64,000 bases of DNA from Escherichia coli (GCF_013315695.1 NZ_CP054353.1), one strand, 5' to 3'; counted from the first letter of the stretch, positions 20,895 to 54,306 are shown. The notes: a model not told the origin generated them from the sequence alone. Numbers and translations are program-made.

Positions 20895-21644
20895 ATGTCC
20901 TTGCCGTCGATTCCCTCTTTTGTGTTGTCGGGATTATTGTTGCTTTGCTTGCCGTTTTCTTCATTTGCCAGCGCCACCACATCACATATCTCTTTCAGCT
21001 ACGCCGCCCGCCAGCGGATGCAAAACCGTGCGCGTTTATTAAAACAGTACCAAACTCATCTGAAAAAGCAGGCCAGCTATATTGTGGAAGGCAATGCCGA
21101 AAGCAGAAAGGCGCTGCGCCAGCACAACCGCGAACAGATAAAACAGCATCCAGAATGGTTTCCTGCGCCGCTCAAGGCGAGTGACAGACGCTGGCAGGCG
21201 CTGGCGGAAAACAACCACTTTTTAAGCAGCGATCACCTGCATAACATCACCGAAGTGGCGATTCACCGCCTGGAGCAGCAGCTTGGCAAGCCTTATGTCT
21301 GGGGCGGCACGCGGCCCGATAAAGGCTTCGATTGTAGTGGGTTGGTTTTTTATGCCTACAACAAGATCCTTGAGGCGAAACTCCCGCGCACGGCCAATGA
21401 GATGTATCACTACCGTCGGGCGACCATTGTGGCGAATAACGACCTGCGCCGGGGAGACTTGTTGTTTTTCCATATTCACAGCCGCGAAATTGCTGACCAT
21501 ATGGGCGTGTATCTGGGCGATGGTCAGTTTATTGAGTCGCCGCGCACGGGGGAAACCATTCGGGTAAGCCGGTTAGCCGAACCTTTCTGGCAGGACCATT
21601 TTTTGGGCGCGCGGCGGATATTGACGGAAGAGACGATTTTGTAG
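20895..21644 (+). CDS. yafL: NlpC/P60-family peptidoglycan endopeptidase lipoprotein
   Basis: 249 aa from ATG 20895 (MSLPSIPSFVLSGLLLLCLPF...); catalytic Cys motif DCSGLV. Confidence 0.85.
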   Translation: MSLPSIPSFVLSGLLLLCLPFSSFASATTSHISFSYAARQRMQNRARLLKQYQTHLKKQASYIVEGNAESRKALRQHNREQIKQHPEWFPAPLKASDRRWQALAENNHFLSSDHLHNITEVAIHRLEQQLGKPYVWGGTRPDKGFDCSGLVFYAYNKILEAKLPRTANEMYHYRRATIVANNDLRRGDLLFFHIHSREIADHMGVYLGDGQFIESPRTGETIRVSRLAEPFWQDHFLGARRILTEETIL

Positions 21645-21725
21645 GCCGGATAAGGCGTTTACGCCGCATCCGGCGGTTGTGCGCGGATGCCTGATGCGAC
21701 GCTAACGCGTCTTATCATGCCTACA
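21642..21725. repeat. REP/BIME element (two REP palindromes, inverted)
   Basis: GTAGGCCGGATAAGGCGTTTACGCCGCATCCGGC ... GCCTGATGCGACGCTAACGCGTCTTATCATGCCTAC. Confidence 0.85.
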
Positions 21726-21820
21726 AATCTGTGCATTTTTTGCGAGCCGCTTTCCCGTTTTTCCATCACCTCATTGCTGACCTTTCCTTTTCTTCTTACC
21801 GTTGAGAAAAAGGAGTCGCT

Positions 21821-22318
21821 ATGTCTGAATATCGTCGTTATTACATCAAGGGGGGAACATGGTTTTTCACGATAAATTTGCGGAATCGTCGAAGCCAACT
21901 TTTGACCACCCAGTACCAGACGCTCCGTAACGCCATTGTTAAAGTTAAGCGAGCCAGACCTTTTGAAATTAACGCCTGGGTAGTCTTGCCAGAGCATATG
22001 CACTGTATCTGGACATTACCTGAAAGCGATGATGATTTTTCCTCTCGCTGGCGTGAGATTAAAAAACAGTTCACTCAAACTTGCGAAATGAAAAATATCT
22101 GGCAACCGCGTTTTTGGGAGCACGCCATCCGCAATACCAAAGATTATCGCCATCATGTTGATTATATTTATATAAATCCAGTAAAACATGGCTGGGTAAA
22201 GCAAGTGAGTGATTGGCCATTCTCAACGTTCCATCGCGATGTCGCGAAAGGGTTATATCCCATCGATTGGGCGGGGGACGTAACGGATTTAAATGCTGGC
22301 GAGCGTATTATTTTATAA
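21821..22318 (+). CDS. rayT: REP-associated tyrosine transposase RayT
   Basis: 165 aa; HuH motif (PEHMHCIW) and catalytic Tyr region; flanked on both sides by REP elements. Confidence 0.92.
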   Translation: MSEYRRYYIKGGTWFFTINLRNRRSQLLTTQYQTLRNAIVKVKRARPFEINAWVVLPEHMHCIWTLPESDDDFSSRWREIKKQFTQTCEMKNIWQPRFWEHAIRNTKDYRHHVDYIYINPVKHGWVKQVSDWPFSTFHRDVAKGLYPIDWAGDVTDLNAGERIIL

Positions 22319-22325
22319 TTGTGCG

Positions 22326-22412
22326 CTGATGCCGGATGCGCTTACGCTTATCCAGCCTACGAATCGTGCCTTAACAGTAGGACGGATAAGGCGTTTACGC
22401 CGCATCCGGCAG
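22326..22412. repeat. REP/BIME element at left boundary of Flag-2
   Basis: CTGATGCCGGATGCGCTTACGCTTATCCAGCCTAC ... GTAGGACGGATAAGGCGTTTACGCCGCATCCGGC. Confidence 0.85.
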
Positions 22413-22433
22413 TTGTGCACCGGTGCCGGATAC

Positions 22434-52021: not shown

Positions 52022-52864
52022 TCAGCATTTCTGCACAGTATTTAACAACTTCTCCAAATTCTGATACATCGCGCTATTAATATCGCTGTTCTGCCAACCT
52101 TCCACATTAAAGGTTAATTGCCAGCTGCCGTTGCACTGGTTACGCAGAACAATATCGCTTTCCAGTCGGTTACGAACATATTTATAATAGGTTGTCATTG
52201 TCATATTATGCGCTGACAATAAATTATCGAGTTTGTCTTTTCCTGGTGCGAGGGTTTGTGATAGTAACGGTACGGAATTATTTTCTCCAGCAGAAGTTAA
52301 ATGAAATATTTTTATTCTTGGACTGTTAATTGACTCTTTTACCAGTTGCGGGGCGTCAGGTGTACTTTTCAAGTGTGAATACCCCACGGTCGAGCCAATA
52401 AATATAACAGCCGCGGTCAACGCTAACCCCATCAGTCCTTTATGTTTTTTTCTAACTGGTACAGGCGGTGTTGTCGAAGATATCTCTTCTGACACAGTTT
52501 CCTGTACCTGGTCGGTAATAATCAGCGCTTCCGCAGGCGATAACTCCGGCAAAGACACATACTCTTTATTGCACAAGTAACCTTTCTTCGGAATTGTTTT
52601 AATAATGTTCTGTTGTTTGCCATCATCGTCGATAGCAACGCGCAACGCATGGATCGCCGTCGGCAGGCTGTTACCGCCGACTATGCGGTTCTTCCATACT
52701 TCGGCACATAAATAAGATCGCGATAAAACCACATCGGCATTTTTTGCTAATGTTTCCAGCAAAATAAAATGGTATTCGCCGAGACGACGTGTTTCACCCG
52801 TTTCGCAATGTATTAAGGCATTAAGCGACGGGTCCATCCGCCAGTTGTTGATAATAATACTCAT
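52022..52864 (-). CDS. lafZ: ToxR/CadC-like membrane-anchored transcriptional regulator (N-terminal winged-helix DNA-binding domain, single TM segment, periplasmic domain)
   Basis: N-terminal region matches CadC-type wHTH (WRMDPSLNAL...GE..RL......LLETLAKNADVVLSRSYLCAEVW); TM segment GLMGLALTAAVIFIGSTVGY; start 52864 or 52915 uncertain. Confidence 0.7.
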   Translation of the reverse strand: MSIIINNWRMDPSLNALIHCETGETRRLGEYHFILLETLAKNADVVLSRSYLCAEVWKNRIVGGNSLPTAIHALRVAIDDDGKQQNIIKTIPKKGYLCNKEYVSLPELSPAEALIITDQVQETVSEEISSTTPPVPVRKKHKGLMGLALTAAVIFIGSTVGYSHLKSTPDAPQLVKESINSPRIKIFHLTSAGENNSVPLLSQTLAPGKDKLDNLLSAHNMTMTTYYKYVRNRLESDIVLRNQCNGSWQLTFNVEGWQNSDINSAMYQNLEKLLNTVQKC

Positions 52865-53278
52865 AGTTGAGTTTACCTTAGCAAGGGATAAATGTTTCCT
52901 GATAGTGCTTTGCATAAAGCACAGTCTTATACGTCCCTGAGAAGATGATTTTTCTGCGTGATAATTAATATTTTATGGTAATAGGATTATTCTTAATCAC
53001 TATATGGCGTGGAAATGTAACGAAATGACAGGACAGGTACAATAGCCAAATGTGTACTATTTGCAACGCAATGTAAATTTTGGCATCAGTACATTGAGAA
53101 CAAAACGCGATAATTGATGGCAATCTTAACTATATCAAGCATTTGATAAAGACATATTTTGATACCTGGCCATGTGGCAGATATTGCTAATAATCTTTTT
53201 ATCTGAATTTAAACTCTGCTTTTTTTTAGCTAAAAGTGGCATCGGATAATACGTGGCGAAAAAATTTTAACGGCGATT

Positions 53279-53307
53279 TTAAGTTTGCTCCTGAGGTGTC
53301 GTTTTTA
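53279..53307 (+). promoter_or_regulatory. Candidate sigma-28 (LafS)-type promoter upstream of lafA
   Basis: TTAAGTTT-N13-CGTTTTTA about 44 nt upstream of lafA ATG. Confidence 0.35.
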
Positions 53308-53350
53308 CAGGGTATCGAAACGAAAACGATTAATCCCAAGGAGCAGTATC

Positions 53351-54265
53351 ATGTTATCTATTAACACCAATAACGCCTCAATGGCCGCCGTTAATGCAAT
53401 CAGCAAAAGCAGCTCTTCTCTGTCTACATCTATGGAACGCCTGGCAACGGGTAACCGGATTAACTCTTCTGCCGATGACGCAGCGGGCAAACAAATTGCT
53501 AACCGTCTGACAGCACAGTCCAGCGGTATGGGTGTGGCGCTGAGCAACATCAATGATGCCACCGCGATGCTGCAAACCGCCGACAGCATGTTCGACGAAA
53601 TGTCTGATGTGCTGGGTCGTATGAAAGACCTGTCAACTCAGGCAGCGAACGGCACCTACAGCGACGACGACCTGCAGGCGATGCAGGACGAATACGACGA
53701 ACTGGGTCAGCAGATGTCTGACATGCTGCAAAACACCACTTACGGCGGTACCAACCTGTTCGGTGTTTCCGGCACCAGCAACACCGGTACTGACGGCCTG
53801 TTCCAGAGCGCGGTAACTTTCCAGGTGGGCGCGGAATCTTCCGACACCATGACCGTGAACATTTCAAGCCAACTGAACACCCTGGTGACCGATCTTTCTT
53901 CTATCAGCAACTCCTTTAGTGCGGATCAGGCTGACACCACGGGCACCGCAGGTGTTTCTGGCGGTACTGAGCTGACCGCGTCTGGCTCGGCTAACCAGAT
54001 GATCACCAGCATCTCTACCGCGATGGATGATGTTTCGCAGATCCAATCCAAGCTGGGTGCGTCTATTAACCGTCTGAACGACACTGCCAACAACCTGACC
54101 AGCATGCAGAACAACACGGAAGTCGCTATCGGTAACATCATGGATACCGACTACGCGACGGAAGCGTCCAACATGACCAAACAACAGGTGCTGATGCAGA
54201 CCGGCATCACTATGCTGAAACAGTCCAACAGCATGTCCAGCATGGTTTCCAGCCTGCTGCAGTAA
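53351..54265 (+). CDS. lafA: Lateral flagellin
   Basis: 304 aa from ATG 53351 (SD AAGGAG); conserved flagellin N-terminus (MLSINTNNASMAAVNAI...LATGNRINSSADDAAG) and C-terminus (...QQVLMQTGITMLKQSNSMSSMVSSLLQ), short central domain. Confidence 0.9.
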   Translation: MLSINTNNASMAAVNAISKSSSSLSTSMERLATGNRINSSADDAAGKQIANRLTAQSSGMGVALSNINDATAMLQTADSMFDEMSDVLGRMKDLSTQAANGTYSDDDLQAMQDEYDELGQQMSDMLQNTTYGGTNLFGVSGTSNTGTDGLFQSAVTFQVGAESSDTMTVNISSQLNTLVTDLSSISNSFSADQADTTGTAGVSGGTELTASGSANQMITSISTAMDDVSQIQSKLGASINRLNDTANNLTSMQNNTEVAIGNIMDTDYATEASNMTKQQVLMQTGITMLKQSNSMSSMVSSLLQ

Positions 54266-54275
54266 TGGCGGACTT

Positions 54276-54306
54276 GCCGGATGCGGCGTAAACGCCTTAT
54301 CCGGCC
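54276..54306. repeat. REP element after lafA
   Basis: GCCGGATGCGGCGTAAACGCCTTATCCGGCC. Confidence 0.75.

Follow-up and report, generated by a model that had tools for sequence, protein, structure and literature searches.

REP elements and their transposase in Escherichia coli

Repetitive extragenic palindromic (REP) elements and the bacterial interspersed mosaic elements (BIMEs) that they compose fall into classes reportedly described by Gilson, Bachellier and Hofnung. In BIME-1, also called RIP, a Y and a Z1 REP surround an L linker that carries a site for the integration host factor (IHF), and BIME-2 is known biochemically to be bound and cleaved by DNA gyrase. The present study concerns the REPs found in Flag-2, a second flagellar gene cluster, within a stretch of 64,000 nucleotides of an E. 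coli chromosome, hereafter the window, and compares them with those of strain K-12. Y, Z1 and Z2 are the three REP classes of K-12 (PMC8266576; consensus in PMC2817692), which contains about 600 REPs in 355 loci (bioRxiv 10.64898/2026.03.23.713779). They act as context-dependent stabilisers in 3' untranslated regions (UTRs) and as partial Rho-dependent terminators (bioRxiv 10.64898/2026.03.23.713779), and clusters of tandem REPs gain and lose units locally (PMC8049555). In vitro, the associated transposase, TnpA_REP or RayT, cuts single-stranded REPs and joins them again, the GTAG head being a feature by which it recognises them (PMC8266576, PMC3479197). According to the accepted hypothesis, REPs are mobilised by RayT in vivo as well, and the mechanism of dissemination is still described as unresolved (PMC8266576). 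The presence of RAYT genes varies among E. coli (PMC8049555), and the K-12 gene, yafM, has been described as 'flanked by BIME-2 on both sides' (PMC2817692).

The window contains 17 REPs in 9 loci (8 Y, 7 Z2 and 2 Z1; Table 1), and these are ordinary E. coli REP/BIME repeats, not a new kind of element. They share with the K-12 repeats the consensus, the GTAG head, the bulged hairpin, an extragenic site close to the 3' end of genes and polymorphism between strains, as well as the alternation, at a period of 117 bp, of inverted Y and Z2 units joined by fixed linkers, and a Y/Z1 pair whose linker resembles the L type. There is no structural difference, only one of place: the window copies sit in Flag-2, which K-12 has deleted, and because of this deletion they are missing from catalogues based on K-12. 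In addition, one pair lies between divergent genes, a setting that holds about 1% of K-12 REPs (bioRxiv 10.64898/2026.03.23.713779). The reading favoured here, which we consider very likely, is that textbook REPs colonised a REP-free and tolerant Flag-2 after the cluster had become resident in Escherichia.

Two K-12 loci can be compared directly with parts of the window. The first is REP325 (naRNA4), the 12-unit Z2/Y BIME-2 between yjdM and yjdN from which the Rfam family RF02564 was built. The array between lfgJ and lfgK uses the same Y+Z2 unit and likewise lies in a 3' UTR between tandem genes, but it has five units and a remnant instead of 12; 12 are found at lfgJ–lfgK in a sister Escherichia, Escherichia sp. 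MOD1-EC7003. In isolate AF3, the source of the annotation used here, the yjdM–yjdN gap itself holds only 2 REPs in 159 bp. The second is REPtron Ec, the rayT (yafM, TnpA_REP) unit, which in both strains has yafL on its left and lfhA on its right, a Y+Z2 pair on the left and further REPs on the right. The two differ in the right flank, which is Z1+Y (2 REPs) in the window and 2x(Z2+Y) in K-12. The window RayT carries 13 substitutions in 164 residues, and in the window an intact lfhA opens a complete Flag-2.

REP/BIME elements and the RayT locus are already known, and what is added here is descriptive, namely a map of the Flag-2 junctions, the restriction of these REPs to Flag-2 of the Escherichia type, and their polymorphism. 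No account of REPs in Flag-2 turned up in a full-text search for Flag-2 together with 'repetitive extragenic palindromic' or in a survey of Flag-2 in Enterobacterales, Ren et al. (2005) lying outside these two sources.

Identity of the repeats

A profile for nhmmer was built from 11 clear copies of the window and gave 15 strong matches (E 1e-8 to 1e-12) and 2 weak ones (E ~2e-3), the latter being the Z1 copies. A second, independent detector, which required a GTAG-type head and a complementary 7-nt arm, recovered exactly the same 17 REPs, and neither method detected a REP in 1–21640 or 54310–64000. All nine positions given in the preliminary description, which had been drawn up from the sequence alone, hold REPs according to both detectors. 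The Y copies measure 33–35 nt, the Z2 copies 35–37 nt and the Z1 copies 29–30 nt. The idea that the Z1 units are degenerate copies was dropped after a structure-aware scan, in which they appeared as the normal 29–30-nt Z1 type.

All 17 REPs form a hairpin interrupted by a common internal bulge; their folding energies are -12.9 to -22.4 kcal/mol, and their z-scores against shuffles -2.3 to -5.3. The 5' GTAG is present in 16 of them, the exception at 54275–54309 reading GTGG here and GTAG in other strains. With respect to the RefSeq coding sequences all are extragenic, apart from a single GTAG head whose TAG doubles as the stop codon of yafL. The copies agree with the published K-12 Y/Z2 consensus (PMC2817692) as well as with the profile, and four Y+Z2 pairs score 72.6–87.9 bits against Rfam naRNA4 (RF02564; gathering score 59.5). 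Profile matches, heads, hairpins, naRNA4 scores and consensus agreement together bear out the earlier identification of these palindromes as REPs organised as BIMEs.

GC-rich hairpins at gene ends, where terminators also lie, could in principle be chance palindromes or ordinary intrinsic terminators and not REPs at all. The probability of this is close to nil: it is ruled out by the excess of the 17-nt head motif GTAGGCCKGATAAGRCG (14 matches with at most 2 mismatches, against 0.02 expected from dinucleotide-preserving shuffles), by the GTAG heads, by the missing U-tracts next to the repeats (lafA has its terminator in another hairpin, downstream of the REP) and by the naRNA4 matches. Near-identical copies are, moreover, common to different loci of the window, and searches of E. 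coli genomes with a query that contains a REP give a median of 26 places in each.

The repeats between the lfgJ stop codon and the lfgK promoter (47999–48321) follow the order Z2-Y-Z2-Y-Z2 plus a deleted Y, the full units in orientations -+-+-. Tandem Repeats Finder reports a period of 117 bp, 2.6 copies and 92% matches for 48000–48310. This array is a BIME-2, and the five-unit array of the preliminary description is found as five full REPs at 48000–48310, followed by the internally deleted sixth. At lfgD–lfgE, the Z1 and Y REPs are separated by a linker of 34 nt, ctgcaatgtattgaatctgca, which resembles the L linkers of BIME-1 units of other strains and includes a candidate IHF site with 1 mismatch to the consensus, as compared by eye only.

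Table 1. Positions of the REPs, of rayT and of motifs and hairpins close to them, counted from the first nucleotide of the window.
Feature	Position	Strand	Upstream stop, distance (nt)	Setting and remarks
Y REP	21641–21674	+	yafL, -4	TAG of the GTAG head is the yafL stop
Z2 REP	21688–21724	-		BIME-2 unit with Y 21641–21674, left of rayT; naRNA4 79.9 bits
rayT (yafM)	21821–22318	+		REP-associated tyrosine transposase, 165 aa
Z1 REP	22329–22360	-	rayT, 12	10–12 nt past rayT stop; weak nhmmer match, E=0.002
Y REP	22377–22411	+		Pairs with Z1 22329–22360, right of rayT; 23 nt from lfhA stop
Z2 REP	28843–28879	+		Divergent lfiM–lafK gap
Y REP	28891–28926	-		lfiM–lafK; pairs with Z2 28843–28879; pair naRNA4 72.6 bits, - strand
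Sigma-54 motif	41324–41339			Before lfgB; motif match only
Z1 REP	42874–42903	-	lfgD, 16	lfgD–lfgE; left part of BIME-1-like unit 42874–42972
Y REP	42938–42972	+		lfgD–lfgE; right part of the same unit
Y REP, single	44967–45001	+	lfgF, 9	lfgF–lfgG
Z2-like REP, single	45830–45866	-	lfgG, 9	Translates as MSDATLTRLIRPT in the over-long lfgH ORF
Z2 REP	47999–48035	-	lfgJ, 16	lfgJ–lfgK array, unit 1
Y REP	48070–48104	+		lfgJ–lfgK array, unit 2
Z2 REP	48117–48153	-		lfgJ–lfgK array, unit 3
Y REP	48188–48221	+		lfgJ–lfgK array, unit 4
Z2 REP	48234–48270	-		lfgJ–lfgK array, unit 5
Y REP, internally deleted sixth	~48300–48321			End of lfgJ–lfgK array
Sigma-28-like promoter motif	48344–48371	+		TTAAGAA-N-GCCGCTTT; before lfgK; kept in Citrobacter, Enterobacter, Leminorella; motif match only
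Z2-like REP, single	51970–52008	+	lafZ, 15	Convergent lafW–lafZ gap; 13–15 nt from lafZ stop
Y REP, single	54275–54309	-	lafA, 10	Head mutated to GTGG
Intrinsic-terminator-like hairpin	54310–54345	+		aacaccgcc..ggcggtgtt and T-rich tail; after lafA, all genera examined; from alignments
Sigma-54 promoter motif	54424–54439	+		TGGCACGCCTTTTGCC; before lafB; motif match only

RayT and its flanking repeats

Judged by its sequence matches, the gene between yafL and lfhA is a bona fide RayT at the canonical chromosomal site. Its product scores 176.9 bits against the NCBIfam equivalog NF047646 (cut-off 80) and matches PDB 4ER8, the TnpA_REP of K-12, over residues 1–164 (E = 1.5e-109; 13 differences in 164, ~92% identical). 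In the alignment with 4ER8, the PEHMHCIW (HUH) and DYIYINPVKHG (Tyr) regions, whose catalytic roles are taken from the literature, are unchanged. The gene is bracketed by inverted REP pairs, Y+Z2 on the left (21641–21724) and Z1+Y on the right (22329–22411), as published for K-12 yafM, and the preliminary description had been right to place a REP-bracketed RayT immediately left of lfhA. Applied to K-12 MG1655, the same profile finds 2 REPs on the left of rayT and 4 on the right, and 9 REPs in 3 loci in the whole stretch fetched; the feature table of that record shows no REPs. A rayT gene is present in 3,574 of 5,426 genomes, with a median of 1 place per genome.

The rayT allele of AF3 is rare, with only 6 records at least 99% identical and 3,555 in the 90–95% band. 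Strains 673, O26 RM10386 and E2 are without the REP-rayT-REP unit and have instead a hicAB toxin-antitoxin pair between yafL and lfhA. The homology between the rayT type and the hicAB type ends exactly at the yafL stop codon, which reads TTG TAG/GCCGG in the former (GTAG being the REP head) and TTG TAA in the latter.

REPs are reported to cluster near tnpA_REP in Marinomonas (PMC8266576), and in the window rayT abuts Flag-2, all 17 REPs lying either immediately around it or within 32.5 kb to its right. A RayT that prefers to act in cis, and so piles up REPs near its own gene, as has been proposed for recently arrived REPtrons in Marinomonas, would produce a distribution of this sort. Such an origin is nevertheless highly improbable here. 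The 21.6 kb on the left of rayT contain 0 REPs, density does not decay with distance (the densest stretch is 20–32 kb away), and strains of the hicAB type still have 10–12 Flag-2 REPs against 11–15 in rayT-positive strains; REP placement is explained by the location of gaps of at least 70 bp.

Junction occupancy, position and density

Flag-2 has 41 gene junctions. At 28 of them the genes overlap or stand no more than 22 bp apart, and the other 13 are gaps of at least 70 bp. REPs occupy 7 of these 13 (lfiM–lafK, lfgD–lfgE, lfgF–lfgG, lfgG–lfgH, lfgJ–lfgK, lafW–lafZ and lafA–lafB). The gap between the glycosyltransferase gene (GT) and lafV holds a BoxC/PIT-like pair and no REP, and neither REP nor BoxC was found in the other five (before GT, lafV–lfgN, lfgM–lfgA, lfgA–lfgB and lafZ–lafA). 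The preliminary description had placed REPs at nearly every operon or gene junction, which is an overstatement, yet the underlying impression of crowding holds, since the density is 2.4 to 7 times the background.

A same-genome background was estimated from four arbitrary 50-kb stretches of AF3 (200 kb in total), which contain 5 loci with 7–8 REPs against the 9 loci with 17 REPs in the 64 kb of the window. For Flag-2 proper (38.2 kb, 7 loci) the Poisson P against these 200 kb is 6e-5. [quoted passage not shown] The enrichment of REPs in Flag-2 is thus real but moderate, and the background sample is small.

At 8 of the 9 loci, the distance between the REPs and the stop codon upstream is -4 to 16 nt; the pair between the divergent genes lfiM and lafK is the sole locus far from one. 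The REPs are placed between the upstream stop codon and, respectively, the conserved motif before lfgK, the lafA terminator and the motif before lafB. Like the motif before lfgK and the lafA hairpin, the two sigma-54 motifs, before lafB and before lfgB, recur across genera in the alignments. A scan of 42–55 kb for sigma-70 promoters and terminators was uninformative; Flag-2 uses sigma-54 and sigma-28.

Variation among E. coli strains

Eight other E. coli Flag-2 loci, 94–97% identical, were scanned in the same way as AF3. The preliminary description had left it to a comparison of Flag-2-positive strains to tell shared copies from strain-specific ones, and these nine E. coli differ in both presence and copy number of REPs, some copies being shared. 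Polymorphism was reportedly presented as a property of BIMEs by Bachellier et al. in 1997.

The lfgD–lfgE gap measures 22–23 bp with 0 REPs in SMS-3-5, O26 and CUVET21-1780, 84 bp with 1 REP, or 143–159 bp with 2 REPs, AF3 being among the latter. At lfgF–lfgG there are 0, 1 or 3 REPs (present in 8 of 9); lfgG–lfgH has 1 REP, either whole or divided by a 121-bp insertion, or BoxC-like repeats and no REP. Most strains have 2 REPs at lfgJ–lfgK, one has 3, AF3 and SMS-3-5 have 5 (the same 420-bp allele), and one has BoxC-like repeats. By contrast, 1–2 REPs are found at lafA–lafB in all nine, and 8 of 9 have 1 REP at lafW–lafZ. Eight of nine strains have 2 REPs at lfiM–lafK, which are inverted in one strain, and SMS-3-5 has BoxC-like repeats there. 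A further REP pair, at the edge of the region VR1, occurs in 7 of the 8 other strains and is missing in AF3, whose REP-free allele is shared by strain 3347558. In none of the nine is there a REP in six gaps (GT–lafV, lafV–lfgN, lfgM–lfgA, lfgA–lfgB, lafZ–lafA and lafU–dinB). REP totals per Flag-2 locus range from 7 to 21, and AF3 is in the upper half without being exceptional. Array sizes were taken only from 12 fetched Escherichia loci, because BLAST coverage cannot give them for lfgJ–lfgK, where the repeated units let short alleles reach 81–87% coverage. Natural pairs of alleles with and without a REP offer material for testing the effects of REPs on operon expression.

Depending on the strain, the same junction may hold REPs or BoxC-like repeats. 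BoxC-like repeats were found at lfiM–lafK in SMS-3-5, at lfgG–lfgH in 3347558, E2 and E1V33 and at lfgJ–lfgK in CUVET21-1780; outside Flag-2, gmhA/lpcA–yafJ has BoxC in AF3 and 3 REPs in K-12. In the window, BoxC/PIT-like blocks (CCCTCACCCC / CCCTCTCCC..GGGAGAGGG / GGGTGAGGG) lie at 38571–38678 (GT–lafV) and 18413–18433 (lpcA–yafJ).

Other insertions affect the REPs themselves. In the loci labelled L006, L009, L014 and L015, the element of ~121 bp at lfgG–lfgH lies inside the REP and duplicates part of it; it has a GTAG head of its own and a long hairpin, GTAGGCACGATAAGCGAGTGGACGG...CCGTCCAC..GCATCGGGC. In Escherichia sp. MOD1-EC7003, whose lfgG–lfgH gap measures 468 bp, this element appears to have multiplied in tandem. 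In O26 RM10386, an insertion of ~65 bp (ttgtattatccctccagtgcagagaaaatcggccagttttctctgcctgcagtcc...) breaks a Z2 REP at lfgJ–lfgK.

Distribution outside E. coli

A scan of species-representative genomes for LfgK yielded 51 loci, each taken with up to 10 kb of flank, and the comparison at five junctions covered 3 Escherichia loci other than E. coli and about 20 from other genera. E. coli-type REPs at these junctions occur in Escherichia sp. E1V33, E. whittamii and Escherichia sp. MOD1-EC7003, the last of which has 25 REPs in 21 kb, 12 of them at lfgJ–lfgK. With the profile built from E. coli copies, no REP was detectable at four of the five junctions in 12 Citrobacter loci or in those of Enterobacter, Phytobacter, Leminorella and Mangrovibacter, and the sole exception outside the Escherichia type is one detectable REP at lfgG–lfgH of C. 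youngae ATCC 29220. The gaps of the other genera are compact (17–30 bp at lfgF–lfgG, 69–104 bp at lfgJ–lfgK); the Flag-2 DNA of C. braakii is 76% identical to the window. REPs are therefore essentially confined to Flag-2 of the Escherichia type. The empty lfgD–lfgE and lfgF–lfgG alleles of E. coli resemble the corresponding gaps of Citrobacter and therefore look ancestral, and REP occupancy that is both specific to Escherichia and polymorphic supports a long vertical residence of Flag-2 in this genus.

E. coli-type REPs also occur in loci named Pseudocitrobacter and in one Citrobacter metagenome-assembled genome (MAG). The Flag-2 loci of Pseudocitrobacter faecalis DSM 27453, P. vendiensis and the Citrobacter sp. 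MAG show 90–96% DNA identity to the window, being as close as E. whittamii, and contain both REP and BoxC repeats of the E. coli type. Their sequences suggest transfer from Escherichia, mislabelling or contamination.

Origin and possible roles of the Flag-2 REPs

If REPs colonised Flag-2 within Escherichia, the original cluster would have been compact and REP-free, a state kept in Citrobacter, Enterobacter, Leminorella and Mangrovibacter and in some empty E. coli alleles. The REP population of the host would then have settled a few permissive sites, 9–16 nt past stop codons and upstream of native promoters or terminators, probably through insertion by RayT acting on single-stranded REP hairpins by way of the GTAG head. 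Slippage or unequal recombination could make arrays grow and shrink locally, giving the 2, 3, 5 and 12 units seen at lfgJ–lfgK, and recombination may swap whole intergenic alleles between strains. Once transcribed, the hairpins would be expected to behave as 3'-UTR elements that shield the upstream mRNA and partly end read-through, in keeping with published findings on REPs elsewhere. Flag-2 is probably under weak constraint, and most of the REPs in it are probably carried along as near-neutral passengers. Weak constraint is also the explanation proposed for the above-average REP density, and Flag-2 may tolerate REPs because of it, as the pseudogenes, insertion sequences and toxin-antitoxin insertions of other strains indicate: their Flag-2 loci include a frameshifted lfhB, an internal stop in lfgF, copies of IS1, IS3 and ISAs1, and toxin-antitoxin insertions. 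Published work also presents Flag-2 as a hotspot where cargo integrates (PMC6993521).

Several observations weigh against this scenario. Compared with the K-12 average (355 loci in 4.64 Mb), the excess in Flag-2 proper is only 2.4-fold (Poisson P = 0.03), and the same-genome baseline comprises just 200 kb, which by chance may contain few REPs. At lfgG–lfgH, Citrobacter has a REP-like hairpin (GCCGGATGG..CCATCCGGC), and this site may predate Escherichia. Finally, the near-fixed REPs (lafA in 9 of 9 E. coli; lfgF–lfgG and lafW–lafZ in 8 of 9) could reflect selection.

Selection is the core of an adaptive explanation, in which REPs are retained to set the ratios of Flag-2 expression, for example by keeping flagellin (lafA) high and the cap (lafB) low, by blocking read-through from lfgB-J into lfgKL, or by damping an expensive second flagellum. 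In its favour, the upstream stop codon is at most 16 nt away at eight of the nine loci, and REPs at most 15 nt from a stop are said to lower translation through ribosome stalling (Liang, Rudd and Deutscher, reportedly in Mol Cell in 2015). The largest array coincides with an operon boundary and precedes the lfgK promoter motif, and the REP after lafA, found in 9 of 9 E. coli and in 3 other Escherichia loci, is inside the lafA 3' UTR and before the native terminator. In tandem gene pairs, REPs have been published to raise the ratio of upstream to downstream expression (bioRxiv 10.64898/2026.03.23.713779). We nevertheless think retention for regulation unlikely; it would concern at least the fixed copies, namely the REP after lafA and the array at the operon boundary. 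Occupancy varies between close relatives, with 2 REPs at lfgD–lfgE in AF3 and 0 in SMS-3-5, unrelated BoxC-like repeats fill the same junctions in other strains, and genera with a presumably functional Flag-2 are without REPs there. At lfgD–lfgE, the upstream gene encodes the hook cap, which is not the product needed in excess, and 3 of 5 background loci are also close to stop codons, by distances read by hand.

Colonisation of a tolerant locus thus remains the preferred account. A bolder reading, that Flag-2 of Escherichia is a preferred sink for host repeats, which would form a lineage-specific layer of tuning or silencing or a signature of the host, appears improbable. If true, REP/BIME and BoxC/PIT elements would repeatedly insert, expand and replace each other at the same few sites past stop codons, and the REP/BoxC signature would date the residence of Flag-2 in Escherichia and trace its export, for example to the loci named Pseudocitrobacter. 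The practical value of these observations is small and their biological value descriptive.

Translated REPs and false gene starts

Some open reading frames (ORFs) of the window open within REPs. The longest lfgH ORF (45829–46569) begins with MSDATLTRLIRPT, which is a translated Z2 REP, whereas RefSeq places the start at 45904, where the N-terminus reads like a signal peptide. The warning in the preliminary description that translated REPs can mislead start calls such as that of lfgH is justified, and current annotation already avoids the error. The peptide PDATLTRLI(R/M)PT is in frame at four more Z2 copies, one of which opens a 62-aa ORF at 21687 starting with MPDATLTRLIMPT. Spurious ORFs that open in REPs in other frames include those at 22293 (MLASVLFYNCALMPDAL...) and 54281 (MRRKRLIRP...). 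Annotation and typing schemes for Flag-2 should mask REPs, which generate spurious ORF extensions and inflate intergenic polymorphism.

Gene context and further features of the window

Gene coordinates follow the RefSeq annotation of NZ_OZ547117.1, the chromosome of AF3, an E. coli isolate from a human blood culture. A 24.9-kb query from the window is 100% identical to AF3, and window position 1 corresponds to position 4662493 of NZ_OZ547117.1. The left part of the window contains an rRNA operon and housekeeping genes up to yafL (20895–21644), and Flag-2 is followed on the right by dinB and yafNOP. Flag-2 is complete, with 42 genes from lfhA (22434–24527, minus strand) to lafU (end at 60619), named according to De Maayer et al. 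(PMC6993521). Cluster 1 comprises lfhAB-lfiRQPNM-lafK-lfiEFGHIJ, cluster 2 lfgNMABCDEFGHIJKL and cluster 3 lafWZABCDEFSTU, and VR1 contains here a cytidylyltransferase-like gene, the glycosyltransferase gene and the lysine methylase gene lafV. The lfgK-lafW segment is present in ~1,279 of 5,426 complete E. coli genomes; the AF3 lineage is rare at Flag-2, only 5–8 genomes being at least 99% identical there.

At lafW–lafZ, the region VR2 (51719–51965) includes an extra segment of ~245 bp in AF3 and CUVET21-1780, with a remnant ORF, MATLKQLMDKQSPESRRRIIKK... In CUVET21-1780 this segment is annotated as a truncated helix-turn-helix gene, and strain 3347558 has at this place an intact RelE/ParE toxin with a helix-turn-helix antitoxin. 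To the left of Flag-2, dkgB is interrupted by IS1A (4755–6335), further copies of which break genes elsewhere in the AF3 genome. Finally, lafE, which is annotated as FliK and assigned to hook-length control, contains an internal 30-bp tandem repeat at 56854–56950 (3.1 copies, 89% matches); the gene measures 1089 bp in AF3 and 1059–1062 bp in other strains.

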